A stretch of DNA of 64,000 nt from Pirellulaceae bacterium (lineage in GTDB: Bacteria > Planctomycetota > Planctomycetia > Pirellulales > Pirellulaceae). The notes beneath the pieces are model-generated. The model was not told where the DNA came from, did no database searches, and saw nothing but the letters and a program-made list of their open reading frames with translations. Positions 5,627 to 49,948 of this stretch are shown here, piece after piece (within the stretch, counting starts at the first letter, position 1; each line of letters starts with the position of its first letter). The DNA is taken from positions 12,418 through 76,417 of the forward strand of contig JAUMAK010000005.1 in the NCBI GenBank assembly GCA_032116735.1, in the 5' to 3' direction. The position numbers and the translations under genes are program-made.

Positions 5627-5653
5627 GCCGACAGACGGCCGGTTCCCTATCAA

Positions 5654-8092: not shown

Positions 8093-8139
8093 CTGGGCGA
8101 TTGTGGTTCGTGGCGAATGTGCACGGACACCTGGTGGAC

Positions 8140-8568: not shown

Positions 8569-8584
8569 AGGTCAACGAACCACG

Positions 8585-13116: not shown

Positions 13117-13394
13117 TGCGATCTATCTTTTAACGCAGGACGAAACCAGCCCCTCATTTTACCCCGCTCCGTAAGGGTCGCAAAGGACGAAACCGGGTTC
13201 TCCCTCCCTTCGGGATGTGGCGAAGTCCATTCGTTCGGCCCGATCGCTGTGGCTTGCCTAATCGATAGTTTTGCGTCGGGGGAGAGGTCACGGCTTTCGA
13301 AGAGAAACGTTCGTTACAGTAATCCGACAGATGCCGCCGCGCGGCCCTCCAAGGGGCTGGGGGTCGCGGGGCAATCCCGCTACTGAGGGTCTCG

Positions 13395-14234: not shown

Positions 14235-14309
14235 CAGCGTAACAGCGTGAGGTGCCGTGGATCGGTGCGCCCGCGACGAGGGATTAAGGATGGCAGCCGG
14301 TGTTGATGC

Positions 14310-31285: not shown

Positions 31286-32260
31286 GTGGCAACAGATTTT
31301 CGACTCAAATCGCAGCTACCAGAATTGACCCAGCGGATCGTGGCGACCTATTCGCCGGACGACGGGATGAACCATCTGGGCCATTGTCCGCTGCCGAGTT
31401 ACGAGGAGATTATCGAGGCGCTGTTGGACCTGAAGGATATTCTCTATCCCGGTTACCGACGGAAGGTGGGGCTGCATAGCGGCAACATCGTTTATCACGT
31501 CGGCGGTTTGATCGATTCGTTGCACGACCGCCTCACGGTCCAAATCGGACGGGCCCTGCAGCATGAAGACCGGGTGACTCGCAAGCACCGCGACTGCGAG
31601 ACCGGTTTTGACTTCGAGGCGAAGGGCCAAGCGATGACGCTGGAGTTCCTGAAACGGATCCCCGAGCTTCGCAAGACACTCGCGACCGATGTGCGGGCCG
31701 CTTTCGAAGGGGACCCGGCATGCCAAACGACGGACGAGGTGGTTTTTTGCTACCCCGGTTTCGCGGCCACGACCGTCTATCGGATCGCACACTTGTTGTT
31801 GGAATTGGGTGTCCCGTTCATCCCCAGGATGATGACGGAATGGGCGCACAAGCAGACCGGGATCGACATCCACCCCGGGGCGACGATCGGCGAGTTCTTT
31901 TTCATCGACCACGGGACGGGTGTGGTGATCGGTGAGACGTGTGAGATCGGCCGTCACGTCAAGATTTATCAGGGGGTGACCCTCGGTGCCCTCAGCTTCC
32001 CCACCGACGCGGACGGGCAATTGATCCGGGGTCACAAGCGACACCCCACGATCGAGGACCGCGTGGTGATCTATGCCAACGCGACCGTGTTGGGCGGCCG
32101 CACGGTTGTCGGTCACGACAGCGTGATCGGGTCGAGCGTGTGGTTAACCAGGAGCGTCTCGCCGCATACCACGGTAACGCTCGAAAAACCGCAGTTGAAG
32201 GTTCGGAACGCGATCAGCGATGCCGAAGTCCTGAACGCCGATCTCAATTTTCAGATCTGA
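31286..32260 (+). CDS. cysE: serine O-acetyltransferase (long form)
   Basis: 324 aa with a GTG start. [27 protein letters not shown], then hexapeptide repeats [43 protein letters not shown]. Confidence 0.85.
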
Positions 32261-32316: not shown

Positions 32317-33726
32317 TCACTTGGCCAGCGATACGCGGATGATCTCCTTGTCGTTGCGGATGAAGACCGATCGGTCGGCGTAGGCGGGGGCAGACCAGAC
32401 GATCTCGCGGCCGTAAGCGGTCCCGGTGGGTGCGATCAGGTGAGACCGATCGATTTCGGAGTAACCCTCGGGCGAGAGCGATGCGATCACCAAGTCGCCT
32501 GCTTCGGTGAAGAGCCAATAGCGATCGCCGTGGCGGACGATAAAGGCTGTCGCAGAATCCTGTGGCCGACCGGGGAGCGGGCCGCCCCCTTGCCAGCGGA
32601 TCTCACCGCTGGGGATCGCGACGCATCGCATTTCTCCATTTTCGTGAAAGCCGTAGAGGTAGCCGTCGGCATGAAAGGGCTGGACATTGACCGCCGACAG
32701 CCCATGTTTTTGCTTGTCTTGCCAGACGACTTCGACATCGGGCTTGTCGCTGCGGAGTTTCAGCAGCAGGTTGCGAGAACGGAAGCCGCCGATGTAGAGA
32801 TAATCGCCGGACCGGACCGGGGCCATGATGATCGATCCGTAGTCGGCCGTGTAGGGTGCGGTCCAGTAGCGTTTCCCCGTTTCGGGATCGATCCCGTCGA
32901 TCCCGTCGGGGCGAGTCAGGAGCAATTGCCGGACCCCAGCCGCTTCGATGATCGTCGGCGGCGAGTATCCCTGTTCCCGGGCCGACCCTGAGGACCAGAT
33001 CTCCGCCCCGGTGAGCTTGTCGAACGCGGCGGCGTGGGCCACGTCTTTGCCCACGACGCAGATCAGACGGTTCCCGTCGATCAGCGGGTGACCGGCGTAA
33101 CCCCACATGGCCGCCTTGGTGCGGTAATCGGCCTTCAGGTCGCGTGACCAGACCACCTTCCCGTCTTCGGCATTGAAGCAAAAGAGGTTCCCTTCGGCGC
33201 CGAGGGTGTAGACCCGATCGCCGTCGACCGTCGGCGTGCAGCGCGGCCCCGCGGGGTAAGAGATCGTGTAGGTGACAGGGTATTCGTGTTTCCATCGAAT
33301 CTCACCGGTCGCCGCATCGAGACACAGGACACGTTCGGTCCCGCTCGAAGCCTTGCGGTCGAAATTCGGATCCTTCGAATCCCCTTGGCCGACGACGTAA
33401 TCGGTGACAAAGACCCGTCCGCCGCTCACCGCAGGCCCCGCATAACCGCCGGCAACCTCCGCCCTCCACATGACCTTGGGGCCACCTTCGGGGAACCGAT
33501 CGAGGATCCCATCTTCGCGCCAAACGTTGTCCCGCTTGGGGCCCATCCACTGGGGCCAATCATCTCCCCAAGCGTCCGGTGTCAGGAGGAGGCACCCGAG
33601 GACCACGGCAGCGATCTGCCCGGCCAGGATGGCGAGCGGCCTAGCCAAGATGGGGATCGGCGCGGGCAAAATTTTCGAAACGATCCGCATCATCGAAGTT
33701 CTCCGTGGTCTGATCGACAGGGACAA
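32317..33726 (-). CDS. PQQ-like / BamB-like beta-propeller repeat protein, membrane-anchored or secreted
   Basis: 469 aa with N-terminal hydrophobic LAILAGQIAAVVLGCLLL. Repeated blade signatures DAATGEIRWKH, AEDGKVVWSR, KLTGAEIWSS, PETGKRYWTA, IPSGEIRWQG. Starts 7 nt after the upstream gene. Confidence 0.7.
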   Translation of the reverse strand: MSLSIRPRRTSMMRIVSKILPAPIPILARPLAILAGQIAAVVLGCLLLTPDAWGDDWPQWMGPKRDNVWREDGILDRFPEGGPKVMWRAEVAGGYAGPAVSGGRVFVTDYVVGQGDSKDPNFDRKASSGTERVLCLDAATGEIRWKHEYPVTYTISYPAGPRCTPTVDGDRVYTLGAEGNLFCFNAEDGKVVWSRDLKADYRTKAAMWGYAGHPLIDGNRLICVVGKDVAHAAAFDKLTGAEIWSSGSAREQGYSPPTIIEAAGVRQLLLTRPDGIDGIDPETGKRYWTAPYTADYGSIIMAPVRSGDYLYIGGFRSRNLLLKLRSDKPDVEVVWQDKQKHGLSAVNVQPFHADGYLYGFHENGEMRCVAIPSGEIRWQGGGPLPGRPQDSATAFIVRHGDRYWLFTEAGDLVIASLSPEGYSEIDRSHLIAPTGTAYGREIVWSAPAYADRSVFIRNDKEIIRVSLAK

Positions 33727-33733
33727 ATCGGCT

Positions 33734-34297
33734 TTAAGCTTTGGTGTCGTCGTAGCGAATGACTTTCACGCCGCGCCGGCCGCTGGGGAGTTTCGCGGTG
33801 ACGTTGATCTCGGTGATCGCGTAACGCCCCGGAACCCATCGCTGGTTGCTTTTCGTCGAAAAGATCTGTTGCGGCAAGACGAGCCGTTCTCCGGGGAGGA
33901 TCGGCGATTGCCGGTAGAGAAAGTATTGGCCGTTGATGTCGACGGTCAGGTTCGGAAGTTCGTGTGCGGTGCGATTGTGGATCACGATCACTTCGGTCAG
34001 GATCGCCCCTTGGCCCCCGACCGCTTCGACCGGTTCGCGGGCCACCGTCACGTCGACATCCAAAGCGGTATCGCTCGCCTTGCCGAACATCGCCGCGTAG
34101 CCGCTGAGGGCGACCAGCGGCACGAGGCAAGTCATCAGCAGCAGCAGCGTCAGGACGCGGGGCGATAGCCTACGGGTCGGGGCGATGGTGACCAGGTCGG
34201 CGGGAAGGGTTGCCCCCCCGTTTTCCCCGACCGCGGCGACGGCCGCCATGGGTTGGGCTGGCGTCGGTTGGGGATCGGCTGGGTTGGAATCGTTCAA
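33734..34297 (-). CDS. hypothetical single-pass membrane protein
   Basis: 187 aa. One TM (VLTLLLLMTCLVPLVALSGYAAMF) followed by a ~120-aa beta-rich domain. Sits between two coupled genes of the same operon. Confidence 0.45.
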   Translation of the reverse strand: MNDSNPADPQPTPAQPMAAVAAVGENGGATLPADLVTIAPTRRLSPRVLTLLLLMTCLVPLVALSGYAAMFGKASDTALDVDVTVAREPVEAVGGQGAILTEVIVIHNRTAHELPNLTVDINGQYFLYRQSPILPGERLVLPQQIFSTKSNQRWVPGRYAITEINVTAKLPSGRRGVKVIRYDDTKA

Positions 34298-34327
34298 AAT
34301 CGGCGTCGCTCCGATTGCGAGTAAGCG

Positions 34328-35455
34328 TTAGCGTTGGTAGATCGGCAAGTAATGATAGGTAACGCTCAAGCTCAGCACTGCCAAGGCCGTGGCGTAGGCT
34401 GATCCGTAGTTCCGTTCTTCCCCGCGGGTGCTCGACCACGAGCCGTCGGCGTTCTGTTCACCCAACAGGAGTTGGCTCACTGTGGCCGCGGCGTTTTCGC
34501 CATGACGCCCGCCACGCTGGTGCATCGCCTGGGCGTAGTAATAGGTCCCGTAATAAAAAAAACGCTCATCCAGCTTCGGCGGGTTTAAGAGCAACCAGTC
34601 GGCGGCCGAGAGTGCCAAGGGGGAGTTGTAGCGGCCACAGACCTGCATCGCCAAAAGCCCTGCGGCGGTCATCGCGAATGTCGGGCGGTTTTGTCCCGGC
34701 GTGTAGCTGAAACCTGCGGGTGATTCGCGGGGTTGGCCATCGGCGTTCAGGGGTGACGTGAAGGACATTTCGAGATAGCGGACCGCTTGGTCGATCGCTT
34801 CGCTGGGGATCGGTAGCCCGTCGTTCTTTGCCGATCGTAGCGCCATCAATTGCCAGACCGAGACGGAGAGGTCGGAATCGGTCGAGTCGGGGGTGTATCG
34901 CCATCCGCCTTGGTTGTTGGAGGCCTTGCGTACCCCTTGGGCCGCGAGGATCACCCGCAGCGCCGGGTCGAGGGCTTGCCGGATGTAGATGTCTTGTTGT
35001 TCGTCGGCCCCCATCCCGTTGATTTCGGTCAACATCAGCGTCGTGATCCCGTGGCCATACATCCGCGAACCGTCCGCGCGGCCGAAGTAACCTTGTGGGT
35101 CTTGCCGCACGGGGCGGCTGGCGGCGCTGGGGTTGACGACGAAGTCGATCGCCCGGCGCATGGCGAGCGACTCCTGGGTCGGGTCTGCCGGGAGGATGCC
35201 GATGCTCGCCATCGCCATGATCGCCAGCGAGGTCATCGACGTGTCGTGCCCGCGGTCGTGGATCGAGCCATCTTTTTGCTGGAGCGACAGGAGATGTTTA
35301 ACGCCATTTTGTGTGGCGCGGCGGATCGCCTGCTCGTCGGGTGCGGGGAGCTTGATCGCGTCGAGGACCTTGTCTTGGGCCAGCAGTGCTAGCGGCGCAC
35401 CGGCGACAATCCAAGCGAGCAAAAAGAGCGACACGTTCCGGGCGCGATGGTTCAT
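34328..35455 (-). CDS. secreted prenyltransferase/squalene-oxidase-repeat (alpha/alpha-toroid) protein
   Basis: ORF 34328..35581. Start moved to ATG 35455 (MNHRARNVSLFLLAWIVAGAPLALLAQ, signal peptide), which overlaps the upstream stop (ATGA). Repeats LLSLQQKDGSI, NNQGGWRYTPDSTDSDLSVSVWQLMAL, GEQNADGSWSS. Confidence 0.65.
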   Translation of the reverse strand: MNHRARNVSLFLLAWIVAGAPLALLAQDKVLDAIKLPAPDEQAIRRATQNGVKHLLSLQQKDGSIHDRGHDTSMTSLAIMAMASIGILPADPTQESLAMRRAIDFVVNPSAASRPVRQDPQGYFGRADGSRMYGHGITTLMLTEINGMGADEQQDIYIRQALDPALRVILAAQGVRKASNNQGGWRYTPDSTDSDLSVSVWQLMALRSAKNDGLPIPSEAIDQAVRYLEMSFTSPLNADGQPRESPAGFSYTPGQNRPTFAMTAAGLLAMQVCGRYNSPLALSAADWLLLNPPKLDERFFYYGTYYYAQAMHQRGGRHGENAAATVSQLLLGEQNADGSWSSTRGEERNYGSAYATALAVLSLSVTYHYLPIYQR

Positions 35456-38400
35456 CGTTCTTGCCCCTGTTCGGCGATCGCCCGGAAATAGGCTTCGATC
35501 TGGCGGCGGTATTCGGGCGAGACTTCGATCCGGCGTTGGACGCTCGTATCTTCGGCCTCGAGCTGTCGCAGGCGGCCCCACTCCCCGCCGCGGCGGGCCC
35601 CGGCCTCACCTAGCCGGAACGAATCGGGGTCACTGCCGATGCTGCCCAGGCCCGACCGCGATGAGGCGGCGGTGCCCGGTTGGCCTTGGGCGGGGTCGCC
35701 CTGTTGGGACGCGTTTTCGCCCTGGGGGCCGGGCGAGGACTCGTTTGCCGGCTGTTGGTTCGGCAAGGTTCGATTCATCGCCATCTGCTGCATCTGTCGA
35801 CGGGCTTCCGAGGCGAGTGTCGGCGAGGAAGGTCGGTTTTGGCCGGACTGATTCGCCGATCCCGAGGGGTTGGCCTGGGACCCGGATGCGAGTTGGTTCC
35901 CTTGCTGGTTCGATTGGGCGTTGGGGTCGGTGTCGCCGTTGGCTTGCTGTTGCTGTCCTGACTGCTCCGATTGCCCCGGCTGTTGGGATGGTTGGGGTTG
36001 TCCCTCTTGGCCGCGGCGTGATTGGGTCAGGGAGCGATCGAGTTCGTCGAGGGTTCGGGCGAGCTGGTTGGCCGGGTTGGCGGACTCGTCCCCCTGTTGG
36101 TTGTTGTCAGCGGATGGGTCGGGGCCCATCTTCGCGAGCTGATCCGCGAGGGCTTTGGCCTGCTGGGCGATCGCCGCTTCGGCATCCCGCAGTTTCTGGG
36201 CCGCGGCATCCGCGGGGGCAGACTGTTGGGGCTGTTGCTGTGCCGCGGAAGCGGTATCGGCAAGCGTTTGGGTCGCTTGGGCCACCGGTTCTTGGGCGAC
36301 TTTAGCGACGGCCTGGGCGACATCGCTGATCGGCTGGTGCGGGGTTTCGCTTTGGAGCCGCTGGAGATGGCGAGCGGAACGTTGGAGATTTTCGGCGGCG
36401 CGGCCGACCTCGCTTTCGACCTGGGCTTGGGTTTGGCGGGAGTTCGCCAGTGGGGTGGCCTCGCCCAGGACGGGGGCTGCCTCCGCGGCACGCTTCGCGG
36501 CCGCCGCGAGCGAATCCCTCTGTGCGGCGATCTCTTCGGCCGCCCGGTCGAGCATCGCTTCGGTCAGTTCCCCTGCGGGCCGCGGGGTGTCGAGGGCCGG
36601 CAATGGGGTCCTGCCGATTTCGGCAAGTTGCTCGCGGGTCCGGTTGGCCTCCTCGCGCCGGCGGTTCGATTCTTCCTGGGCGATCGCCTCCTTCGTTTTT
36701 TCTCCTTCGACCTTCCGTGCGGCGGCGTCGCGAAGGCGTTTCAGCTCCGGGTCGTCAGGTTTCTGGTCGAGCCGTTTTTGGGCGTCGCCCAAAGCCCGCT
36801 CGGCTTGGCGTGTTTGGCCGTTGGCGTTTCTCGCCGATTGCTCGGATTGGGATGCGGCCTGATTGGTCCGATTGACCGCGCCTCGGATCGCCCCGGCCAG
36901 CGTGTCCCGTGCTTGTCGTTGCAAGTTTTGCATGTCCCGCTGTTCTGCTTTACGGGGGTCACCTGGGATCTCCGCCTTGGGATCTTGTCGGATTTGGTCG
37001 GTCGTTTCCGCCGCCTGGTCGAAGGCCTCGGACGCCTTGCCGAGGCTTTCTCGCAAGGCTTCCGCGGTCCGTTTCAGGTCCTCCATCAGCTCCTGTTCGG
37101 CGGCGCGGATAGCGGACGCCGCCTGAGTCGCCTGTTGCAGTTGGTCGACGGCCGCGTCGAGCCGTTGGCGGTTCTCGGTGGCCGCCTTCGCGAGGGGTTC
37201 GGGCAAGCCCGGAGAAAGAAGTCTCGCGGCGGTTTGTCGGGCCGTGTGAAGTCGTGAACGTTGGACCGCCGCGGTCTGGTCGAGGGCGGTCCGGATCGCG
37301 TCTTCCAATCGGCGTTTCTCGTCAAGCAGCCTCGGGTCTTGTCGCTCCAGTTCCAGGCGGAGTTCACGTTCCCGCTGGGCCTGTTGATCGAGCGTCTGTT
37401 GGGCATCGCGGATCGATTGTCGTGCGATCCGTTGCAGTTCCTTTCGCATCGCCTCGTTACGCTTCAACTCTTGGGCGAGTTGATCGAGCATCTCGCGGGG
37501 GTCGGACCGGAGGGCTTCGGCGAGCATTTTGCTGCGTGCGAATTCCTCGTCGAGCTTCTGCTTGAGGTCGAGTTCTTCTTCGAGCGCGGCGAGATCGGCC
37601 CCCTCGTTGGCTTGCGCGTCGGGGTTATCGGGTGAACGTTGCTGTTGATAGTGGTTGGCGATCCGTTCGAGGGTTTGGGCCGCTTGGGCGAGCGGGTCGG
37701 CGGCGGCCTGCAAAGCCTCCGCGGCCGCTTGCGGCTCGGTCGCCTGTTCGGCTTGCGAGATCGCGCGGTTGGTGGCTTCGGCCGCTTCGTCCATTCGCAT
37801 CTCGAGGGCCCGCGAGGCGATATCGGCCTCGCGGGCGCGATCCATTCCCTCGCGGGTCGTCAGGTCTTGGGTATTCGCCTCGTCGATGAGCGCCTCCTTG
37901 AGTGACTCGGCTTGGGCGGCGATCTGTCGTTGGAGTTCGGCGAGCTGCTGCGATGATTCTCGCGGCTTCTCGGGCTCGGGCTGTCGCGCGGCCTGCTCCG
38001 CCTTACGGAGCGATTCGGCCGTCTCGCCGGCCATTTCGCCGAGGTCTGGCAGGTAGGCCTGAAGCCGCCGCCGCGCCTCGGCCGCGACGGGGGCCAGCCC
38101 CTCGCCGGCGGCGACCAACGCCTCTGCCTTCTTGTCGAGGTCATCGGCGAGCGAGATGGCGGGGGAACGTTGGTAGCGACGGGTCGTGATCGCACCCGCG
38201 ATTCGGGATGTTTCGGAATGATGGACGGCGTCATGGAGCGGTTGACGCACCTCCCAAGGGATCCCCGAGCGTTCGAGCGCGCCCAGCGAATGGTCGAGCC
38301 CGCGTTGCACCCTTTCCCACCTCCGCGGCGCGTCGAGCCAAGCACCTGCCGTGTCGATATCCCACCGTTCGGTGTCGGCGAGCGTTCGGAGCTCCATCAG

Positions 38401-41184
38401 CCATTGGTTCCACAGGTGGATCGCCTCCAATTGCCGGAACGCGGCGGCGATGTCCTCCAGGACCTTGGTCAAGTCTTTCCCCTCGGGGGGCGAGAATCCC
38501 TCTGCCTGGATCGTATCGAGCACGCGACGCATCAGCCGCACGTCGGTCACGTAGCGTCGGTCGGCCTCAGGGCGGCGGAGGTTGAATTCGGAATCGCGGT
38601 CGAGCTGTTCCGAGGCGTAACCCAGCGCTTCGGCGGTTTCGGGCGGCAACTGCCAACGGGGCGTCTGGTCGGCTGTCGCGGCCGGTTTAATTGCGACCGT
38701 CTGGCGGGCCGCTTGGATCGCCGGGAACGAATCGCCGAAGAGCTCATGCAGGCGGTTCTGCGATTCGACCATCATCGACGGGAGCCTCCCGTCGAGCATC
38801 CCGTAACGCTTGCGGGTCGAGATGTCGGCCAGCAGGTCCTTGGCCATCGCCCGGGTCCGCTGTTCTCCGATCTCCGGCTTGGCGTGGTCTTCGATCCGTT
38901 GCAGCCAATCGTCGATCCACCGCTGCAACTGTTCGTTGTGGTTGCGGGTCGATTCGGGGACCGCTTCGCGCAACGAGTCGATCAGTCCTCGGATGTCAAG
39001 GAATTGTTGTGTCGTGACACGATGGTAAGCCGCGAACGATTCCCACCGTACCCCCGAGCCGGGATCGGTCAGCGGGGCGATCGAGCGATCCATGCGATCG
39101 AGGTCATCGGCAAGGGTAACGCTTAGGCGATGGGCCGCGCCAAGTCGAGCGGCGCTATCGATCGCCGTGACCGATTTGAGGAGTTGTCCCATCCAGTCAC
39201 CGGTCGGACGCGCATCGGCGGCGGCTTTTCGTAATTCGGCATCGATCCTCGCGATGCCCCGACCGATCGGTTCGAGTTCGCCGGCTTCGGAATCGTGCAG
39301 CGCAGCCGCGTTCATTTTGTTGATCCGAGCGAGGAGCTTTTGGGTCTGCTCGGCGAGCGGTGGCGCGGCCCGTGAGGGTGTCTGCGGCGCGGCGGTCCCA
39401 ACCTTGGCAGCTGGGACTTGCATCCCGAGCCGTTCCAGGTCGCGCGTCACGGCGTCGGCCCAGAGTTTCAGATCGTCGATCAGTCCCCCCCAGCCGAGAA
39501 GGTTGTCGCGACGCTTGACGCTGAAAGCCTGATCGCTGATCAGGTATTCGCGGACTTCCGATTCGCCCCGCTGCCCTTTGCGGTCGACCGCGACCAAGCG
39601 GGTGCGAAGCAGGTCGCCCGGGCGTAGCGGCTCTTCGCCGGAGCTGAAGCGGTCGAGGTCCCAAACCCAACTTTGCCGCGACCGGGTCGCCTCCGAGAGG
39701 CCGTTGGGCTGGAAGGGTGACGGGTCGCGCTGCCACGCCCCTTGATTGATGGCCGTCTCTTGGAAGAGCTCTTCGATCGGCATTTCGTCTTCGGTCGATA
39801 CCGCCAGTTCGATCGAAGCTCGCGACGGGATCAGTTTGCGGTGATCAGGTCGTCGTGGTTCGTCGAGTGGGTGTTCCGGGAGGTCACCTTCCGGATGGTC
39901 GGCCGAGGCCTCGTGGGAGGCGGCTTGCGCGTCTGTCCATACGACTTGGGGTGGGACGTCGGGGATCCCGACGACCGCATATTGGGGGCTGAGCGAGTTA
40001 TCGAACCCCGTAAGCGCGTCGCTGGCGACGACTTGGTAACGGTCGTCACGGGTGACTTGGAAGGACGCTTCCCATCGGTTACCGCCGGCCGCGGTCAGCC
40101 CCTTCATCGGGATCCGGACATCGGCGTCGATCAGCCTCAGCTCGGGCCGGACCACGGGGGCGGCGAACGAGGCGGTTACGGTCAATGTGCTGTCGCGGAG
40201 CACCTGAATGTTACCCTCCTCGGATGTCGCCGTCTCTTCCGGTAGTCGGGAGTACGACGGGGGTGTGACGCGGAACTCGAAGCCGACCACTTTGGGGCGG
40301 GGCTTCGGTTCGAGCCGGTGCCAAGCGGTGACGCCGTCGCCCGCCAGGACCCGGTATCGGATCGGGGCGTCACCGACCGGGAGGTTGCCGGCCAATTCGG
40401 TAACCGCTTCGACGCCACCGGAGGTCGGCCTCTCTTCGAGAGCGCGGAGCTCGATCGCGCCGCTGGCGCCGTCGGGGGTCTGCCACTCGAGGCTCCCTGT
40501 GTTCGTGACTTGCCCCGAGGTCGCTACCCGAACCGCCGTCCATTCGTTCGCCGGGACGTCGGCCGATGCGGGGCTTGGGGAAAGGATCTCGATCTTGGTC
40601 CGCGAGACGCGATCGAGGTCGATCCCCGGGATGATCGCCCGCGCGAGCCGCGTCCCGTAGCGGAGGTCAGGGATCAACAGCATCGATCCGGCCGCGGCGG
40701 CGAGCGCCCCGGCGATCAACAGCGGCTTGCGGATCAACGCCAGCGGAAGGATGTCTGGGATTTCGACCCGGGCCAAGCGAGCCGCGACGTCCCGCTGGGC
40801 CGCTTCGATGAAAGCCCGCGACCCCGAGAGCGATCCGCGGGCCGATTCGCTCGCCAGCTCGAACGCCGACAAGAGCCGGTCCCGCATTTCGGGGCGGGCC
40901 GATTCCAAAGCGATCGCGGCCCGACGTAGCGGCCGCTCGCGGCGCGATCGCGAAAAGCCTAAATAAGCAAAGAGGGTAAGCGCCATGCCATGGACCAGCA
41001 GGCTCAGCGTCATCCGGGTGGGGCGTTCGATGACCCAGATCGCGTCGATCAGCACAAGGGCCAAGATCCCGAGGATCCAGAGGACCAGCGCGGCAAGGGC
41101 GGCACGGAGCAGGACCAATCGACGCTGGCGTCTGGCGAATCGCTGCAGCCGCGCGCCGATCAACGGATCGAGTGCGATACTCAT
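35452..41184 (-). CDS. giant (1910 aa) membrane-anchored coiled-coil protein, DUF4175-like architecture
   Basis: N-terminal TM helices (LRAALAALVLWILGILALVLIDAIWVI; LSLLVHGMALTLFAYLGF; LLIAGALAAAAGSMLLI) and a mixed middle region. A very long A/E/Q/R-rich heptad-like region follows, then a Q/N/S/G low-complexity tail and the C-terminal SPEYRRQIEAYFRAIAE. The start is 1 nt after the upstream stop. Confidence 0.7.
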   Translation of the reverse strand: MSIALDPLIGARLQRFARRQRRLVLLRAALAALVLWILGILALVLIDAIWVIERPTRMTLSLLVHGMALTLFAYLGFSRSRRERPLRRAAIALESARPEMRDRLLSAFELASESARGSLSGSRAFIEAAQRDVAARLARVEIPDILPLALIRKPLLIAGALAAAAGSMLLIPDLRYGTRLARAIIPGIDLDRVSRTKIEILSPSPASADVPANEWTAVRVATSGQVTNTGSLEWQTPDGASGAIELRALEERPTSGGVEAVTELAGNLPVGDAPIRYRVLAGDGVTAWHRLEPKPRPKVVGFEFRVTPPSYSRLPEETATSEEGNIQVLRDSTLTVTASFAAPVVRPELRLIDADVRIPMKGLTAAGGNRWEASFQVTRDDRYQVVASDALTGFDNSLSPQYAVVGIPDVPPQVVWTDAQAASHEASADHPEGDLPEHPLDEPRRPDHRKLIPSRASIELAVSTEDEMPIEELFQETAINQGAWQRDPSPFQPNGLSEATRSRQSWVWDLDRFSSGEEPLRPGDLLRTRLVAVDRKGQRGESEVREYLISDQAFSVKRRDNLLGWGGLIDDLKLWADAVTRDLERLGMQVPAAKVGTAAPQTPSRAAPPLAEQTQKLLARINKMNAAALHDSEAGELEPIGRGIARIDAELRKAAADARPTGDWMGQLLKSVTAIDSAARLGAAHRLSVTLADDLDRMDRSIAPLTDPGSGVRWESFAAYHRVTTQQFLDIRGLIDSLREAVPESTRNHNEQLQRWIDDWLQRIEDHAKPEIGEQRTRAMAKDLLADISTRKRYGMLDGRLPSMMVESQNRLHELFGDSFPAIQAARQTVAIKPAATADQTPRWQLPPETAEALGYASEQLDRDSEFNLRRPEADRRYVTDVRLMRRVLDTIQAEGFSPPEGKDLTKVLEDIAAAFRQLEAIHLWNQWLMELRTLADTERWDIDTAGAWLDAPRRWERVQRGLDHSLGALERSGIPWEVRQPLHDAVHHSETSRIAGAITTRRYQRSPAISLADDLDKKAEALVAAGEGLAPVAAEARRRLQAYLPDLGEMAGETAESLRKAEQAARQPEPEKPRESSQQLAELQRQIAAQAESLKEALIDEANTQDLTTREGMDRAREADIASRALEMRMDEAAEATNRAISQAEQATEPQAAAEALQAAADPLAQAAQTLERIANHYQQQRSPDNPDAQANEGADLAALEEELDLKQKLDEEFARSKMLAEALRSDPREMLDQLAQELKRNEAMRKELQRIARQSIRDAQQTLDQQAQRERELRLELERQDPRLLDEKRRLEDAIRTALDQTAAVQRSRLHTARQTAARLLSPGLPEPLAKAATENRQRLDAAVDQLQQATQAASAIRAAEQELMEDLKRTAEALRESLGKASEAFDQAAETTDQIRQDPKAEIPGDPRKAEQRDMQNLQRQARDTLAGAIRGAVNRTNQAASQSEQSARNANGQTRQAERALGDAQKRLDQKPDDPELKRLRDAAARKVEGEKTKEAIAQEESNRRREEANRTREQLAEIGRTPLPALDTPRPAGELTEAMLDRAAEEIAAQRDSLAAAAKRAAEAAPVLGEATPLANSRQTQAQVESEVGRAAENLQRSARHLQRLQSETPHQPISDVAQAVAKVAQEPVAQATQTLADTASAAQQQPQQSAPADAAAQKLRDAEAAIAQQAKALADQLAKMGPDPSADNNQQGDESANPANQLARTLDELDRSLTQSRRGQEGQPQPSQQPGQSEQSGQQQQANGDTDPNAQSNQQGNQLASGSQANPSGSANQSGQNRPSSPTLASEARRQMQQMAMNRTLPNQQPANESSPGPQGENASQQGDPAQGQPGTAASSRSGLGSIGSDPDSFRLGEAGARRGGEWGRLRQLEAEDTSVQRRIEVSPEYRRQIEAYFRAIAEQGQER

Positions 41185-41185
41185 A

Positions 41186-43597
41186 TCAGATCAACCCCGC
41201 CTTTTTTCGGAACCACCATTCGGCCGTTAACAGGCCGATGACCATCCAGAACCATGGGAACGATTCGGCCAGCGGGTAGCGACGGGTTTCGATCCGCCCG
41301 TCGCTCAGCGGGGCGATCGCGTCCCAGACTTTTTGCGCCTCCGACTCGTCAGCGTAAACCCCGCCCGAAGACTCGGCGAGCGACCCCAGGAGGTCGACGT
41401 CCTGCGCCAATCGCGATGCCTCGCGATCGGGAGGTGGGACGACCAACATTGATGTCTTGACCTCTTGCGATTCGTTGTAACCGGCCGAGCGGAGCGAGAT
41501 CTCGTAAACCCCAGACCCAAGCGGTCCTGATCGCCCTTCATAAATCCCGCGGTCCGCATCGACGTTCTTCAGCAACACCGTTTCGGGGCCACCCGCGCCC
41601 CCACTCAGGATCGCCTCGACGATCGCGCCCCCTACCGGCTTGCCGGAGGCGTCGCGGAGCTGTGCTCGGAGCGTCGCCGACTCGCCGGCCGTGTACTGGG
41701 GGGAGCCCACGGCGAGCGAAACGTATCGGTCTTTGACTTCGAACGGCGGCTGCATGATCGCCTCGAGCAACTGATTCCAGAAGCGATTATGGTAGCGGTC
41801 GGCGACACGGTACCGCCATCGCCAAGTTTGATCGAAGGCAAGGTAGACCGCTTGACCTCCCCCAAACCTGCGGGTGACCACCGCGGGCGACGCGGGGGAT
41901 GAATTCATCGGTTCCGTTTCGAGCCAAACCTCGGATCCCGGCAGCCCCGTGACGCCTCTCAGTTTGGTCGGCGGCGCGAGGGTTCCCCAGACCGACGCGT
42001 CATCACCAAGCCGCAGGGCGGCTTGACCGGCACCCAGCGCGGTCGGCCTGAGAGACCGTGGGGCGGATAGCATCGGGTCGGTCGTCAGCTTGACCGGCAA
42101 CACGGCCCCGACCGGGGAGTCTGACAGCGATGCCAAGCCGTTGCGGTCGCCATCGATAAAGACGATCGCACCCCCTTGGGAGACATAATCTCGAAGACGC
42201 TCAAGCTCATCCCTGGTGAAGGGGTCGTGCCCGCAGTCACCCCAAATGACAGCGTCGTAGGCTGCCATCCCCTGGGTGTCGGCGGGGAAGGTCCCTTCGC
42301 GTCGGTCCCGCACCACTTGCCCACCCATCGTTCTTGGCGGCGCGATCAGCGTGTCGACTTGCCACGAGGGGTCGCGGTCAAAAAGGTTGAAGAGGTAACG
42401 CGTCTCCCAGCGGCTCCGCGAATCGACGATCAGCAACTTCCGTTGCCGCAAATTCGCCGAGACGCGGAAATCGAGCCGATTGTTCTTCGTATCGAGTTGG
42501 CCAGCGATCGGGTCGATGCTCACCGATAGCGGCAAGGTGACCCGCGTCCGTTTGACGTCCCCTTCCCCACCTCCGCCGAGCCGTTCGATGAGAGGTGCGA
42601 CGGCAAAATCGAACCCGACGCGGCGCTGGGGAACGCCCTGGCTCGAGAGCGTCTCTTCCCAAACCGTCTGATCCCCCATCATCACCCGCAACCGCAGCGC
42701 CTCCCCTGCCCCCGCGAGGTCCTTGATCGTCACTTGCCCGCTGATCCTGCCCCCGGCCGAAACGCTCGGTGGGACGTTGACCCCCAGGATCGCGACATCG
42801 CGAGGCTCTGCCTTCGACCCGAAGCCGATCGTGTGGACGGGGACGCGGGAGTCTCCCAGGCGTTGTGACCAGACGGCCGGGGGCGAGCCGACGTTGTGCT
42901 GGCCATCCGACAACAGGATCACCGCCGCTCGCCCGGAAGCCTGGTCCCCCTCGCCACGCAGGACCCGCGACGCGATCGGGTCGCCGAGGTTTGTGAAGCC
43001 ACCCCCGACAAAGTTCGATCCGCTCGCGTCCGACGATTGGTCGCCCGGCAAAGCCACAGAACCCGGTTCGGGCGAATTCGGCGGTTCGGCCGTTACCGGC
43101 GCGGCGCGGAGCGAATCCGGAAGTGGTAAGTCGGATCGCGAATCCCACAGCAACCTGACGTCGTCCTCGCGGAGCCGGTGGATCAGGACGTGATGGGTTT
43201 GTCGAACCGAATCCAACCAACCGGCTCGGCCCGAGGCCTCGCCGGTTAACAGTTCCCATGCCCGCTCGAGCCTGGCCCGCGGCGGGGAGGCGCCCTCCGG
43301 ACCGGGGCCCGCGGCTTGGGCGGAATCGTTCGTCAACATGCTGCCGCTGGCATCGATGAACAGGTCGATCGTCGGTACCGAACCGCTGATTTTTTGATAG
43401 CTCAACACCGGTCCGGCGAGCATCAACAGGGCGAGCGCCAGGGCACCGCCTCGGAGCAACGGTAGGAGCCAAGACCAGGGCGGGTCGAGGCGTCGGGTCT
43501 CGCGGCGATACAACCATGCGAGCGCGACAGCGGCCGCGATGGCGATCGCCAGGGCGGTCGCCATCGACATTTCGCCTTGAGATTGCAAACGGAACAT
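41186..43597 (-). CDS. BatA-like double-TM / von Willebrand factor A domain protein with a C-terminal amidotransferase-like module
   Basis: 803 aa. Two N-terminal TM helices (ALAIAIAAAVALAWLY; LLRGGALALALLMLAGPVL). MIDAS DxSxS (IDLFIDASGSM) and AAVILLSDGQHNVG of a VWA domain. Later LLIVDSRSRWETRY and GGAIVFIDGD resemble the DUF1355 / class-I GATase-like fold. Confidence 0.7.
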   Translation of the reverse strand: MFRLQSQGEMSMATALAIAIAAAVALAWLYRRETRRLDPPWSWLLPLLRGGALALALLMLAGPVLSYQKISGSVPTIDLFIDASGSMLTNDSAQAAGPGPEGASPPRARLERAWELLTGEASGRAGWLDSVRQTHHVLIHRLREDDVRLLWDSRSDLPLPDSLRAAPVTAEPPNSPEPGSVALPGDQSSDASGSNFVGGGFTNLGDPIASRVLRGEGDQASGRAAVILLSDGQHNVGSPPAVWSQRLGDSRVPVHTIGFGSKAEPRDVAILGVNVPPSVSAGGRISGQVTIKDLAGAGEALRLRVMMGDQTVWEETLSSQGVPQRRVGFDFAVAPLIERLGGGGEGDVKRTRVTLPLSVSIDPIAGQLDTKNNRLDFRVSANLRQRKLLIVDSRSRWETRYLFNLFDRDPSWQVDTLIAPPRTMGGQVVRDRREGTFPADTQGMAAYDAVIWGDCGHDPFTRDELERLRDYVSQGGAIVFIDGDRNGLASLSDSPVGAVLPVKLTTDPMLSAPRSLRPTALGAGQAALRLGDDASVWGTLAPPTKLRGVTGLPGSEVWLETEPMNSSPASPAVVTRRFGGGQAVYLAFDQTWRWRYRVADRYHNRFWNQLLEAIMQPPFEVKDRYVSLAVGSPQYTAGESATLRAQLRDASGKPVGGAIVEAILSGGAGGPETVLLKNVDADRGIYEGRSGPLGSGVYEISLRSAGYNESQEVKTSMLVVPPPDREASRLAQDVDLLGSLAESSGGVYADESEAQKVWDAIAPLSDGRIETRRYPLAESFPWFWMVIGLLTAEWWFRKKAGLI

Positions 43598-43757
43598 TGG
43601 CGGCCGCGGCGGGGGGATGGGTTGGAGCTTCCGATTCTAACAATCGTACTCAAGATGATCACGCGGCGTTGACGATCCTAGCGAATGTACGGAATGAACC
43701 GACCCGGGGCCATGGTTTCGCTGGCGAACGGGTAACCGCAAATGTGAGGTCGAAACC

Positions 43758-44801
43758 GTGTCTTTTTTGATTCGCAAGCGTTCCGCCGCTATTCCCATGC
43801 TGCTCGCTTCGGTGTGGACCTTCGGGGATGCCCCGACGGCCAGCGCTCAGAGGGCCGTCGTCCCCGGCGCGGGGACCGAGATCGTTGGGGTGGCCGACGA
43901 CTTCGAAGATCCTAATTGGCAGTTTATCCCCAACAATCCCAAGAGCACGGAAGATATCGACGAGAATCAGCGTGCGCCGATGGGGAAAACGACCAACGGC
44001 CGGTGGTACGAGGGGATCAAGCGGGGGCATCCCGATGAGGTGAAGCGGGTCCCGACTCCCTCGGGAGGTCTCGCCGGCAGCAGCGGCGCGATGCTGATGC
44101 GGAGCCGCGATACCGGGATCCCCGGCCGCCCCAGTGGCGAAATGCACCAGGACGACTTCGTTTGCAACGTCCAATATCGCCTCAAACGCCCGATCCAAAT
44201 TTCGGAAGTCCCCAGCGTGACGACGCGAGTTTTCCTGCCACCGGTCGCCCAATGGGAACCCCGAAGCGGCCCCCACTTCGGTTTCCGGCTCGCCTTGGAA
44301 ACGACAGCGATGATCGAACAGCGGATCGGAAAGACCCCGCTCAAGACGAAATCGAAGGGGAATGAAGTCTACTGGCCCGGGATGTTCATCGAATTCGAAA
44401 GCAAGGCTCAGACCGGCAAGGAAGATGACTACGCCTATCTTCGCATCCGCAGCAACAGCCAGGGCGGCGACTTTCGCGGGCCCCAAATCACCCAGACCGG
44501 GTGGTGGACCCTGGGAATGTCGGTTACCCCGGACGGCATGGTGCACTACTACGCCAAGCCCGGCATCGAAGAGTTGACTGAAGATGACTACATCACGAGC
44601 CAATTTCCCTACAGCTATCGGGCCGAGCGGTTCCGGACCTTCTTTTACAATATTTGCAGCGCTGATAACGGCCGCCAATGGAGCACGGCGTTCATCGTCG
44701 ACGACCCCAAAGTTTACGTCTTACGCCCCTCCGGAAGTGGCCAAATGGCTGCCGTTCCCGCCCCGGCCAAGGCGAGCGGCGGCAAAGGGGTGCGCCGCTA
44801 G
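43758..44801 (+). CDS. hypothetical secreted protein
   Basis: 347 aa, GTG start, signal peptide MSFLIRKRSAAIPMLLASVWTFGDAPTASAQ. Balanced composition (K, Y, W, N, F present) and GC-rich third positions. The antisense 339-aa ORF has shadow-type R/G/P/A composition. Confidence 0.55.
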   Translation: MSFLIRKRSAAIPMLLASVWTFGDAPTASAQRAVVPGAGTEIVGVADDFEDPNWQFIPNNPKSTEDIDENQRAPMGKTTNGRWYEGIKRGHPDEVKRVPTPSGGLAGSSGAMLMRSRDTGIPGRPSGEMHQDDFVCNVQYRLKRPIQISEVPSVTTRVFLPPVAQWEPRSGPHFGFRLALETTAMIEQRIGKTPLKTKSKGNEVYWPGMFIEFESKAQTGKEDDYAYLRIRSNSQGGDFRGPQITQTGWWTLGMSVTPDGMVHYYAKPGIEELTEDDYITSQFPYSYRAERFRTFFYNICSADNGRQWSTAFIVDDPKVYVLRPSGSGQMAAVPAPAKASGGKGVRR

Positions 44802-44987: not shown

Positions 44988-45371
44988 ATGAACGATGTAT
45001 CGAGTAAGTCGAGTAATTCGTTGACCCTTTCGGTAGGCCAAGTCGACGAGCAGTTGGCTCACCTCTGGATGGTGCGGACTTTCATCAAGCACAGTGATGA
45101 GTCCCAGGATGATGAAGACCTTCGCGAAATCGCACGCGAGCTCTACGACTTTATTCTAGCGCTCGCGCCGGCAAAGAACGCCGAGGACGACGAGGCCTAC
45201 GTCAAAATGGCCCGCAAGAAATTCCCCAAAGTGAAGAAGGCCGCGGAGTTATTTAACGAGATCTACGCCGACGTTAGCTCGCATACGAACTTCGAGATGG
45301 CCAACAAGTCGCTGCAACTGGTCATCCAGAAGATCGAACAGATCCTGCAGGGGCTCGGCCAGCAGGGGTAG
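44988..45371 (+). CDS. hypothetical small acidic/Lys-rich helical protein
   Basis: 127 aa with an ATG start. Helical-looking sequence (DLREIARELYDFILALAPAKNAEDDEAYVKMARKKFPKVKKAAELFNEIY). Local GC is lower than in the neighbours. No family recognised. Confidence 0.45.
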   Translation: MNDVSSKSSNSLTLSVGQVDEQLAHLWMVRTFIKHSDESQDDEDLREIARELYDFILALAPAKNAEDDEAYVKMARKKFPKVKKAAELFNEIYADVSSHTNFEMANKSLQLVIQKIEQILQGLGQQG

Positions 45372-45537: not shown

Positions 45538-46596
45538 TCAGAAGTCGCCGATCACTTCCCCACCACCCCGAGACCCCAACCCGCGATAGATCTGCCGGTC
45601 GATGCTGTCGGTAAGTGGCCGGACCGACCCGTCCATCATCACCCCTTGGACCAAGCCCTCATGGAAGCTCCGGGAGGTGATCGCCCCGCGACCGATCTCC
45701 GTGGCGATCCGGCCCTCGCCGCTGCTGTAGGCGTCGATGTCATAGGTGCGGCCTTCGCGGACACACGAAACGGCCGTATTGGGGGTGAAGGTGGTCGTGA
45801 AACCGCTGTGGACCGCCAAGCCGCAAACCCACTCGGTGTGCCCCCCGCTTTCGGACCACTCCCCGCCTTGTGCGGCCGCAACGATATCCTCCGGACGGAG
45901 CGGTTCGGCCACCGGTAAGTCGGCGTCAAAGAAAACAGGTGTGTAACCCTTGACCTCCGACATCGCCAAGGTGTTGCTCAGCCCGTCGGTGAACGCCGCC
46001 GCCCCGAATCGGGCATTCGGGGCAAACGCCGCGCCGCCATCCGAGCGGTTGAGGGGGTTATAAACGAGGTAACGCCCCACGCTTAGCGTATAGTTCAGCG
46101 GATGGTGCAGGGCCTCTCGGGTGGTCGGATCGACCCATCCCCGATCGTTGACCTCGGACGGACACATCAGCACGGGGATTCGCGTTGAAGCGATCCCTCC
46201 CGGTGGGAATGCGGCCCGATTGGAAGGCGAATGGTACCCGGTGGTGAAGTCGATCCGCGAATAGCTGTTGCCGCCCTCGACAAATGGGAGCAGGAACGAT
46301 TGGCCTGACCAATGCACCGAAGACGGGCCAGTCGCAACGGTCGAAGGGGGAAAGACCCGATGGGTCGATTCGTAATTGTGCAACGCTAACCCGAGTTGCT
46401 TGAGGTTGTTTTGGCAACTCATCCGCCTGGCGGCCTCGCGGGCCGCTTGCACGGCAGGTAGCAGCAACCCGACCATCACCCCGATGATCGCGATCACCAC
46501 CAACAACTCCACAAGTGTAAAACCGCCCGTCGTTTGTGGGCCTCGGGGTTCGCGGCCCCGGGTGGGACAAACCGTCTGACGATGGCGAAACATCAA
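45538..46596 (-). CDS. DUF1559 protein (type II secretion prepilin-like N-terminus, H-X9-DG motif)
   Basis: 352 aa. Prepilin cleavage/methylation motif GGFTLVELLVVIAIIGVMVGLLLPAVQAAREAARRMSCQNNLKQLGLALHNYES. C-terminal H-X9-DG (FHEGLVQGVMMDGSV). Confidence 0.9.
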   Translation of the reverse strand: MMFRHRQTVCPTRGREPRGPQTTGGFTLVELLVVIAIIGVMVGLLLPAVQAAREAARRMSCQNNLKQLGLALHNYESTHRVFPPSTVATGPSSVHWSGQSFLLPFVEGGNSYSRIDFTTGYHSPSNRAAFPPGGIASTRIPVLMCPSEVNDRGWVDPTTREALHHPLNYTLSVGRYLVYNPLNRSDGGAAFAPNARFGAAAFTDGLSNTLAMSEVKGYTPVFFDADLPVAEPLRPEDIVAAAQGGEWSESGGHTEWVCGLAVHSGFTTTFTPNTAVSCVREGRTYDIDAYSSGEGRIATEIGRGAITSRSFHEGLVQGVMMDGSVRPLTDSIDRQIYRGLGSRGGGEVIGDF

Positions 46597-47862: not shown

Positions 47863-49155
47863 ATGTTCGTCATTCGTCGTGGCGGCTGTCCCCAAAGCGG
47901 GGCTGCCTCCCTCCTGGTCCGAATCGGGTCAGGTCATCGATCGATCCTCCGCCGTGCCACCTGGCGTGCGATCTGCGCGGCGGCCGTCTCTGCCTGTTGC
48001 TGCGCCCCTGTTTTGGCCCAAACTTCGGATGATGTCGGCGTAGGGAACGTTGCCGTCGGGGGCGAGGTCGCGGTTGGAAGCGGAGCTCTGTTCGGCGGGA
48101 ATCCGTCCGACGATCTCGAGTCCAGCGCGGGGGCACCGACGACCGAAGCGGTCGATTCACAGCGTGAGGCGGTCTACGAAGAGTTGGCCGAGGAATTCGC
48201 CTTGGTGGATCGCTTGGGTAACTTGGTCAAGCGGGTCGCGGCATTGGTCAAGCCGAGCGTCATCCACATCGAAGCGCGGAAGTTGGAGCGGAACCGCGGG
48301 CGGAGCGAGGCTTTTGACGAAGCCGGTGCGGGGGTCGCGATCCGACTCGCGGGTCAGACGTGGATCCTGACCAACCGGCACGTGATCGCGGGGGCCGAGC
48401 CTGCCGAGATCTCGATCCAAACGAGCGACGGGCGAAAGTGTCATCCGTTGCAGGTCTTCGCCGACCCGAGCACGGATGTTGCGGTGATGCGAGTCGACAT
48501 CCCGATCGCCGTCGCAAAGGTCGGTAACAGTTCGTCAGCCGAAATCGGTGATTTCGTTATCGCGATTGGCAGCCCCTTCGGGCTAAGCCACAGCGTCACG
48601 TTCGGGATCCTGAGTGCCCGGGGGCGACGCGACCTGTCTTTGGGGAGCGAGCGGATCGATCTTCAGGATTTTTTCCAGACCGATGCCGCGATCAACCCCG
48701 GGAACAGCGGCGGTCCGCTGATCAACCTGCGAGGCGAACTGATCGCGATCAACACCGCGATCGCCAGCAGCGGCGGCGGCAGCGAAGGGATCGGCTTCGC
48801 GATCCCGATCGATATGGCGGTCCGCGTCGCCGAAGAATTGATCTGCCACGGCAAATTGCGACGGGGTTATCTCGGGGTGACGCTTGACCCGGAATTCTCA
48901 CCCGCCGAAGCGGTGCGGCTATTGGGTTCGCCCCATGGCGCCTTGGTGAAGGATGTTCGGGCCGGTTCCCCGGCAGACTTGGCCCACATCCGCCGCGGCG
49001 ACGTGATCATCGAATTCGATGGAGAACCGGTCGAAAGCGATGACCATTTGGTGACCCGGGTCGGACTGGCGCCGATCGATCGCGAGGTCCCTCTGGTCAT
49101 CTCAAGGAATGGCCAAAAGTACCGAACCGCGCTGGTCGTTACCCCGATGCCCTAA
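47863..49155 (+). CDS. htrA: HtrA/DegP family serine protease with one PDZ domain
   Basis: 430 aa with a signal-like N-terminus. Catalytic triad contexts TNRHVI (His), DVAVMRV (Asp), GNSGGPLINLRGELIAINTAI (Ser). C-terminal PDZ (RGYLGVTL...GDVIIEFDG). Confidence 0.88.
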   Translation: MFVIRRGGCPQSGAASLLVRIGSGHRSILRRATWRAICAAAVSACCCAPVLAQTSDDVGVGNVAVGGEVAVGSGALFGGNPSDDLESSAGAPTTEAVDSQREAVYEELAEEFALVDRLGNLVKRVAALVKPSVIHIEARKLERNRGRSEAFDEAGAGVAIRLAGQTWILTNRHVIAGAEPAEISIQTSDGRKCHPLQVFADPSTDVAVMRVDIPIAVAKVGNSSSAEIGDFVIAIGSPFGLSHSVTFGILSARGRRDLSLGSERIDLQDFFQTDAAINPGNSGGPLINLRGELIAINTAIASSGGGSEGIGFAIPIDMAVRVAEELICHGKLRRGYLGVTLDPEFSPAEAVRLLGSPHGALVKDVRAGSPADLAHIRRGDVIIEFDGEPVESDDHLVTRVGLAPIDREVPLVISRNGQKYRTALVVTPMP

Positions 49156-49849: not shown

Positions 49850-49948
49850 GGTTGGACCGAAGTCAGATCGAGGATGGTTGGGAGGGAATGTCAGGGCCCG
49901 CCGTTCCCGCAACCTCGGGCCCAGTCGGTATTCCTTTGTCTATTATCA

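Follow-up and report, generated by a model that had tools for sequence, protein, structure and literature searches.

The closest comparison for the locus described here is provided by the Bacteroides aerotolerance (Bat)/MoxR operons, which combine genes for MoxR, DUF58, BatA, BatB, BatC, BatD and BatE and of which there are spirochete, Francisella and Riemerella versions. A second group, the membrane-proximal MoxR-vWA(DUF58)-transglutaminase (YebA-like) operons, was described by Zhang and Aravind (2012, PMC3495828), who proposed that the vWA protein recruits a substrate and that MoxR remodels it. We have analysed a locus of this general kind in a 64,000-nucleotide stretch of DNA from a Pirellulaceae bacterium (assembly GCA_032116735.1, contig JAUMAK010000005.1, positions 12,418 to 76,417), hereafter the window. 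Five consecutive open reading frames (ORFs) on its minus strand, which we call g1 to g5, encode a BatA-like VWA protein, a giant membrane protein, a toroid with a predicted export signal, a small membrane protein and a beta-propeller protein. An initial annotation had taken all five for parts of one envelope-spanning assembly, and had likened the first two to the BatA_N/VWA and DUF4175 pair of MoxR-DUF58 loci. The link to MoxR/DUF58 loci is right, the five-gene framing is wrong and the DUF4175 label is unsupported; the locus represents a known type of operon in a variant not yet characterised.

The conserved unit and its relation to Bat operons

Loci were gathered by exact-protein look-ups of g2 and g1 homologs and by scanning a collection of species-representative genomes with a profile of the g2 N-terminus, giving 67 loci in total and 63 non-redundant loci after duplicate removal. 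They were annotated with local hidden Markov models (HMMs) made from the proteins of the window and, for MoxR, DUF58 and BatA, from the genes of relatives, and adjacency was counted on the same strand, in loci with enough flanking sequence. Counted in this way, g1 adjoins g2 in 49 of 56 loci and g3 is adjacent in 42 of 46; BatA is adjacent in 40 of 50, and DUF58 lies two genes upstream of g1 in 39 of 49. The conserved unit is DUF58-BatA-g1-g2-g3, with or without MoxR. The initial annotation was right to place the g1-g2 pair with loci of the MoxR/DUF58 type, and mistaken in leaving g3 outside the set. The front-half genes of the relatives all pass curated cutoffs, BatA with 51-53 bits on PF07584 together with VWA_2, DUF58 with 170 bits on PF01882 and MoxR with 214 bits on AAA_3.

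In relatives the genes of the unit are tightly joined. Overlaps of 4 nucleotides (nt) in locus L001, and of 1-4 nt in L007, run through DUF58, BatA, g1, g2 and g3, with a 1-nt gap between g1 and g2 in both, and the window shows the same tight pattern. Upstream of DUF58 and downstream of g3 no further gene is common to more than 10 loci, and a TPR gene stands upstream in L007 only. The arrangement is present in Rhodopirellula, Rubripirellula, Novipirellula, Roseimaritima, Aporhodopirellula, Allorhodopirellula and Neorhodopirellula (L050 is the locus of Neorhodopirellula pilleata). Partial versions are found in the Gemmataceae, where a metagenome-assembled genome (MAG) of Fimbriiglobus carries g2-g3, and in Verrucomicrobiota (L065-L067, from Roseibacillus/Akkermansiaceae MAGs and related contigs), where L065 has MoxR-DUF58-BatA-g1-g2 and g3 occurs in L067. 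In the literature on DUF4175, on MoxR/DUF58/BatA and on Planctomycetes we found no published description of this gene set.

In the lineage of the window, the g1-g2-g3 trio has been split from the DUF58-BatA front half. This follows from two observations taken together. A phmmer search with the proteins of a relative found no MoxR, DUF58 or BatA homolog in the 64-kb window, where the initial annotation had likewise seen no MoxR or DUF58 gene. In addition, the window and its closest relatives (L010/L012, L008/L013 and L002, at 57% g2 identity or more) carry a divergent gene of 318-347 amino acids (aa) upstream of g1, in a neighbourhood of unrelated genes (sulfatase, DUF1559 and DksA).

Compared with the Bat operons, the operon of the relatives opens in the same way, with DUF58, a bona fide BatA and g1 in tandem with it as in the BatA/BatB pair, sometimes led by MoxR. 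It differs in having a membrane protein of ~1,900 aa and an exported toroid in place of the TPR proteins and BatD; g1-g5 have no TPR (BatC/BatE) or BatD matches, MoxR is usually unlinked and, in the window, DUF58 and BatA are unlinked too. With the YebA-like operons the locus shares a MoxR/DUF58 pair joined to a multi-transmembrane protein, but it has no transglutaminase-like peptidase, the partners being VWA proteins, a giant immunoglobulin-like (Ig-like)/helical protein and a toroid. DUF4175 (PF13779)/TIGR02302 proteins have two or three N-terminal transmembrane helices and a long extracytoplasmic Gln/Gly-rich low-complexity region, and their linkage to MoxR-DUF58 loci has been reported in Alphaproteobacteria. 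While g2 has that general layout, it is about twice as long, has three Ig-like domains, and matches neither model at E<=10 (Pfam) or E<=0.01 (NCBIfam); nor does any of 10 distant g2 relatives at E<=1. The labels DUF4175, TIGR02302 and BatA_N were rejected because neither g1, g2 nor the 10 distant g2 relatives gave a Pfam or NCBIfam match to them.

Several loci carry variants of these genes. L004 has a 1523-aa g2-like gene (10001-14572) with neither g1 nor g3, and L043 and L046 have g2-like genes with no upstream g1. In L061 one 1481-aa ORF (5217-9659) matches g1, with no separate BatA match, and is possibly a BatA-g1 fusion; L062 has a BatA-like ORF of 1137 aa (3936-7346). Several loci from MFD-series MAGs (e.g. 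L036, L059 and L062) have their genes in many frames, which looks like assembly frameshifts.

Anatomy of g1, g2 and g3

The BatA likeness noted for g1 in the initial annotation is borne out at full length: HHalign aligns the g1 family (30 homologs) with 35 BatA sequences over 655 columns at a probability of 99.1% (E 4e-19), and g1 is best described on this basis as a full-length BatA paralog, analogous to the BatA/BatB pair. It has the double-transmembrane N-terminus of BatA and a VWA domain with a metal-ion-dependent adhesion site (MIDAS), although the Pfam BatA_N and TIGR02226 models themselves miss it. Against Pfam, VWA is matched at E=0.068 and GATase1_like (DUF1355) at 21 bits, below its cutoff of 27, and PDB sequence and profile searches returned marginal VWA matches only. 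Among the families named for checking at the outset, those that hold are SQHop_cyclase_C and PQQ_2, in g3 and g5. The AlphaFold2 (AF2) model of g1 (mean predicted local distance difference test score, pLDDT, 84) has transmembrane helices at 12-34, 41-61 and 780-800. Between them lie the VWA domain, which holds the MIDAS and a disordered insert (166-198), an Ig-like domain, a GATase1-like/GIFT-like alpha/beta domain (~374-615) and a second Ig-like domain. The MIDAS is intact, as had been noted from its DASGS motif. In an alignment of 30 homologs from Planctomycetota and Verrucomicrobiota, D82, S86 and D231 are invariant and S84 (>=90%) and T202 nearly so. Foldseek matched the model to STM3548/STM1381 (TM-score, a template modelling score, of 0.64-0.69 relative to the target) and also to chain G of the yeast oligosaccharyltransferase (OST), the VWA protein PTMP1 and a CARDB domain.

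Arg/Lys-rich segments lie between the first two transmembrane helices of g1 and past the C-terminal one, and by the positive-inside rule they would place the VWA and other domains in the periplasm. This matches BB0173, a BatA-type protein whose VWA domain faces the periplasm by experimentally determined topology (PMC5700661). Homologs of g1 number at least 197 in Planctomycetota and Verrucomicrobiota, 'VWA domain-containing protein' being the name given to some of them, and identity to orthologs is 45-62%. A solitary g1-like VWA gene in Prosthecobacter algae (Verrucomicrobiota; L011, 10001-12340) indicates that g1-like proteins exist outside this operon too.

The giant ORF g2 is uninterrupted, as the initial annotation had it, in the independent assemblies L010 and L012, and it has full-length homologs from 97% down to 26% identity (27 by word search); it is therefore not an assembly artefact. 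Conservation is spread over its whole length with few gaps, at 34-57% identity to orthologs. No Pfam or NCBIfam family is matched. An exhaustive HMM search with residues 1-570 found 11,331, 6,346 and 738 cluster representatives at E<=1e-3, 1e-10 and 1e-30, and the best 150 matches of the N-terminal profile search are mostly 1600-2170 aa long. Judged by these searches, g2 represents a large family, conserved in size, for which neither Pfam nor NCBIfam has a model.

The AF2 model of g2 residues 1-570 (mean pLDDT 80) has helices at 7-49, 54-80, 85-138 and 148-168. The ~65-residue loop between the second and third transmembrane helices has Arg-rich flanks and invariant A90, E94, P98, L105, A107 and E109, and is probably cytoplasmic by the positive-inside rule. 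A Foldseek search with this model returned generic tandem Ig/FN3 proteins only (e.g. SiiE and NCAM2) and no functional lead. Residues 556-1700 gave weak ApoLp-III-like and DUF7201 matches, and the low-complexity region that follows varies in length among homologs (gap fraction 0.15-0.27). The C-terminal module (WGxLR ... YRxx[VI]ExYF) is among the most conserved blocks of g2 (0.60 identity) and recurs in the wider family: a strict pattern matched 31 of 107 long relatives, and a looser one (W-G-x-L ... Y-R/F-x-x-[VI]-E/Q-x-Y-[FY]) was present in 9 of 9 g2-family C-termini inspected. BLASTP self-comparison found no internal repeats. At the nucleotide level, window positions 36001-38000 stand out by an extreme AT skew of -0.449, the values elsewhere being about -0.05 to -0.17. 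Since this interval falls where the minus-strand g2 gene encodes its Ala/Gln/Glu-rich helical part, the skew probably reflects composition rather than replication or a mobile element.

The third gene encodes the most conserved protein of the set, with 68-83% identity to orthologs and 2450 homologs at E<=1e-10. It falls in the prenyltransferase/squalene-oxidase-repeat (alpha/alpha toroid) superfamily, with 30.8 bits on SQHop_cyclase_C (PF13243; cutoff 26.1; profile positions 81-274 of 319) and 26.7 bits on PF13249 (cutoff 26.2). Many orthologs carry the same precomputed domains, and homologs are named 'prenyltransferase/squalene oxidase repeat-containing' or 'terpene cyclase/mutase family'. The likeness to the toroids of squalene-hopene cyclases and prenyltransferase beta subunits extends to QW-like repeats. 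Unlike the squalene-hopene cyclases, which have a two-domain (beta-gamma) architecture of ~630 aa, g3 is a single toroid of ~340 aa and is predicted to be exported from its N-terminal hydrophobic leader. It scores 16-23 bits on the NCBIfam cyclase equivalogs against cutoffs of 320-850, a PDB profile search gave only weak matches to squalene-hopene-cyclase repeat segments (E about 1e-4), and the class II terpene cyclase motif DxDD occurs in 1 of 120 orthologs.

About 95 positions of g3 are invariant, including D128, H135, R186, D193, D195, R207, N211 and E347, and the C-terminus is fixed, 100 of the 120 orthologs ending in YH[YF]LPIYQR. The leader is more variable: twin-arginine (RR, Tat-like) leaders are present in 63 of the 120 (P0295-P0414; loci L020-L063), and those of the window's clade and a few others lack RR. 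By prediction, then, the protein seems to be exported by different routes in different lineages, though the orthologs are at least 54% identical. Elsewhere in the window, an 849-aa ORF (5654-8203, minus strand) has a g3-like toroid segment (63 bits in a phmmer search with a relative's g3) and scores 23.8 bits on SQHop_cyclase_C, just under the cutoff; we read it as a larger paralog of the exported toroid.

Layout of the locus and its clade-specific additions

The remaining two genes are not part of the conserved unit. The product of g4 has a single transmembrane helix and a C-terminal domain of ~115 aa, matches no Pfam or NCBIfam family, and is 72-74% identical in L002, L003 and L006. It is adjacent in 5 of 44 loci (L002, L006, L008, L010 and L013), all at 49% g2 identity or more, and no locus of the DUF58-BatA-linked type has it, a distribution that points to a clade-specific small membrane protein. 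Still more restricted is g5, adjacent in none of 40 loci apart from L010, which is from the same species as the window. Its product, a beta-propeller (110 bits on PQQ_2), resembles BamB in its eight-bladed-type propeller, its hydrophobic leader and a Cys in a possible lipobox (VLGC), but scores far below the BamB equivalogs (TIGR03300, 55.2 bits against 285.2; NF008351, 42.8 against 423) and its position is not conserved. Where g2 identity is 57-62% (L002, L008 and L013) g5 is absent and g4 abuts an opposite-strand gene, in L002 a hexapeptide-repeat (cysE-like) gene. Because g5 is present only at 97% identity, and at 57-62% g4 is followed directly by the convergent gene, g5 is best read as a recent insertion into the convergent intergenic region. 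Of the last three genes, then, g3 is kept next to the first two in relatives, and g4 and g5 are not.

All five consecutive, tightly packed, same-strand ORFs of the initial annotation exist (Table 1). They span window positions 32317-43597, with a GC content at third codon positions of 76-79%, typical for coding sequence here, and hydrophobic N-terminal or transmembrane segments in all five products agree with the prediction that each is membrane-anchored or periplasmic. The 1-nt gap between the g1 stop and the g2 start (TGAtATG) and the ATGA shared by the g2 stop and the g3 start were described correctly. The gaps of 30 nt between g3 and g4 and of 7 nt between g4 and g5 hold with TTG starts; with the in-frame ATG 48 nt downstream the former is 78 nt, and with the ATG at 33693 the latter is 40 nt. 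A GGAG precedes the ATG at 33693 by 7 nt, and the gene call of the 97%-identical contig L010 begins g5 at this ATG; the conservation of g4 homologs sets in only after both candidate g4 starts. The intergenic region upstream of g1 is presumed to hold the promoter of the g1-g5 transcript. No sigma-70-like consensus was found upstream of g1, such a consensus being uninformative for a planctomycete, and a coding-strand scan for terminator-like sites found none, the scan being uninformative for this phylum.

Table 1. Features of the locus, in window coordinates
Feature	Position	Strand	Description and basis
g1	43597-41186	-	803 aa
g1 MIDAS motif DASGS (D82-S86)	43340..43354	-	from translation
g2	41184-35452	-	1910 aa
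g2 residues 1-172	40669..41184	-	transmembrane hairpin, ~65-aa conserved helical loop (RPEMRDRLLSAFELA), third transmembrane helix; AF2 and hydropathy
g2 residues 197-550	39535..40596	-	three Ig-like beta-sandwich domains, predicted periplasmic; AF2 pLDDT mostly 85-95
g2 residues 556-1700	36085..39519	-	Ala/Gln/Glu/Arg/Leu-rich, presumed helical from composition
g2 residues 1701-1850	35635..36084	-	low-complexity; Q 20, S 15, G 11, A 11, P 9, N 9%
g2 residues 1851-1910	35455..35634	-	conserved C-terminal module, WGRLR ... SPEYRRQIEAYFRAIAEQ
g3	35455-34328	-	375 aa
g4	34297-33734	-	187 aa; 171 aa if begun at ATG
g5	33726/33693-32317	-	469 aa (TTG start) / 458 aa (ATG start)
Intergenic region between g1 and the divergent 347-aa gene	43598..43757		160 bp, from gene boundaries
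Convergent cysE-like gene downstream of the operon	31286-32260	+	

The product of the divergent gene upstream (43758-44801, plus strand) has 347 aa and an N-terminus resembling a signal peptide, and matches nothing in Pfam or NCBIfam. It is 85% identical in L002; the gene holds the same position in L008 and L010, and only in the split-operon lineage do this gene and g1 have the 160-bp intergenic region in common. Further out lie genes for a small Cob_adeno_trans-like protein (44988-45371, plus strand; 26 bits) and, named by synteny with the annotated L002, a DUF1559-type prepilin-like protein (45538-46596, minus strand), an HtrA-type protease (47863-49155, plus strand) and LexA (49244-49912, minus strand). 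These are ordinary core or planctomycete-typical genes, which supports a chromosomal, non-mobile setting for the locus.

Proposed role and competing explanations

Taking the synteny, the junctions, the domain anatomy, the paralogy of g1, the missing front-half genes and the non-conservation of g4 and g5 together, we believe that g1, g2 and g3 probably correspond to the three final genes in a conserved envelope operon, split off here, whose products act as a periplasmic scaffold. In the window's lineage the trio would have separated from DUF58-BatA and gained the clade-specific g4, and in this species only it would also have gained the BamB-like lipoprotein gene g5. The products of g1, g2 and g3, with BatA, may form one inner-membrane-anchored periplasmic complex. 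In such a complex the VWA/MIDAS domains of BatA and g1 could clamp acidic ligands on g2 and/or g3, g2 would span the wide planctomycete periplasm as a long scaffold, and g3 would be a binding module, an enzyme being less probable. MoxR with DUF58, encoded elsewhere in this genome if the model holds, would drive assembly or remodelling from the cytoplasm, possibly via the conserved g2 loop. We base this last step on the general idea that VWA proteins recruit substrates for their MoxR-clade ATPase partners (PMC3495828).

Several points weigh against this proposal. MoxR is adjacent in only 7 of 49 loci and, since the window holds no MoxR, DUF58 or BatA gene in its 64 kb, the coupling to an ATPase is an extrapolation. 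The central region of g2 bears out the 'extended coiled coil' of the initial annotation only in part, because heptad periodicity (period 3.5) is significant (z 3.3-8.6) only in windows starting at residues 1191, 1331, 1541 and 1611, that is, in patches between 1190 and 1700. An enzyme, too, would account for how strongly g3 is conserved and for its many invariant polar residues. Finally, what Bat-type operons do biochemically is itself unsettled: Leptospira biflexa showed no phenotype on deletion (PMC3557215), and stress phenotypes are described for the operon in Riemerella (PMC11834572).

If g3 were instead an enzyme of the periplasm whose substrate is a polyprenyl, a terpenoid or some other lipid or glycan of the envelope, the role of g1 and g2 would be to position or regulate it. 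That g3 is the most conserved gene, passes the SQHop_cyclase_C gathering score and has so many fixed positions favours such a model, as do the twin-arginine-type leaders of half of its orthologs, which would suit export after folding or cofactor loading. We nonetheless consider it rather unlikely, given the single toroid in place of the two-domain cyclase, the near-absence of DxDD, the very low equivalog scores and PDB matches confined to repeat segments. We give less credence still to an ATPase-independent trio, a passive tether or adhesin-like module for which the DUF58-BatA neighbourhood would mean shared regulation only. The trio does stand apart from MoxR/DUF58/BatA in at least three species-level lineages (window/L010/L012, L008/L013 and L002), and MoxR is adjacent in only 7 of 49 loci; in relatives, however, stop/start overlaps join DUF58 and BatA to g1, g2 and g3, the linkage is found in 39-40 of about 50 loci and reaches Verrucomicrobiota (L065-L067), and g1 is itself a BatA paralog.

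The single five-subunit assembly envisaged at the outset now appears distinctly improbable. One strand, gaps of at most 78 nt with no terminator-like site on that strand, membrane or export signals in all five products, and a five-gene order kept in L010 all speak for it, but L010 is 97% identical and hence without independent weight, and the distributions of g4 and g5 described above run counter to it: g5 is missing and g4 abuts the convergent gene in L002, L008 and L013, and no DUF58-BatA-linked locus has g4. Least probable of all, to the point where we would be surprised to see it confirmed, is a conflict or threat-sensing system of the MoxR-vWA-beta-propeller kind (Kaur et al. 2020), in which the g5 propeller would be the sensor. 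The locus does encode a VWA protein alongside a long filament-like protein and a beta-propeller, much as in Esr systems MoxR and vWA go together with surface filaments that carry propellers at their tips (bioRxiv 10.64898/2026.09.08.750141), and the MoxR of L001 also matches bpMoxR (PF20030) at 42.5 bits. That same MoxR matches AAA_3 far better, however, the propeller gene is confined to one species, the window has no MoxR and no kinase, FHA or effector genes accompany the locus, which sits in conserved core-gene synteny (LexA, HtrA, DksA, cysE). A PADLOC search gave no matches, and on that result a defence-system reading was rejected.

A more speculative extension of the scaffold proposal is that g2 is a length-conserved, periplasm-spanning filament, held by its three-transmembrane anchor and tipped by its C-terminal module. 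It would report on, or itself set, conditions in the outer envelope (for instance damage, the width of the periplasm or its contact with outer layers) and signal via its loop to MoxR-DUF58, with the MIDAS domains of BatA and g1 and the toroid g3 as clamps. We regard this as unlikely, but if true it would give Gram-negative bacteria a structural counterpart to the sensing by filament, MoxR and vWA that has recently been proposed for the Esr pathways of actinobacteria.

Whichever explanation applies, few bacterial gene clusters that still lack a mechanism are as widespread as the MoxR/Bat-type operons, and the version of these operons in the Planctomycetes-Verrucomicrobia-Chlamydiae lineage is now delimited with sharp boundaries, as DUF58, BatA, a BatA paralog, a giant and a toroid. 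For annotation, this means that the propeller gene g5, and probably the small transmembrane gene g4, should not be counted as part of the system, and that g2 stands for a family of hundreds of 50%-identity clusters at E<=1e-30 that is missing from Pfam and NCBIfam. For experiment, the MIDAS residues of g1, the predicted cytoplasmic loop and C-terminal module of g2, and the invariant-rich exported toroid g3 offer concrete handles. The planctomycete periplasm is unusually large and convoluted, and a conserved, inner-membrane-anchored protein of ~1,900 residues is thus a plausible candidate for organising that space.

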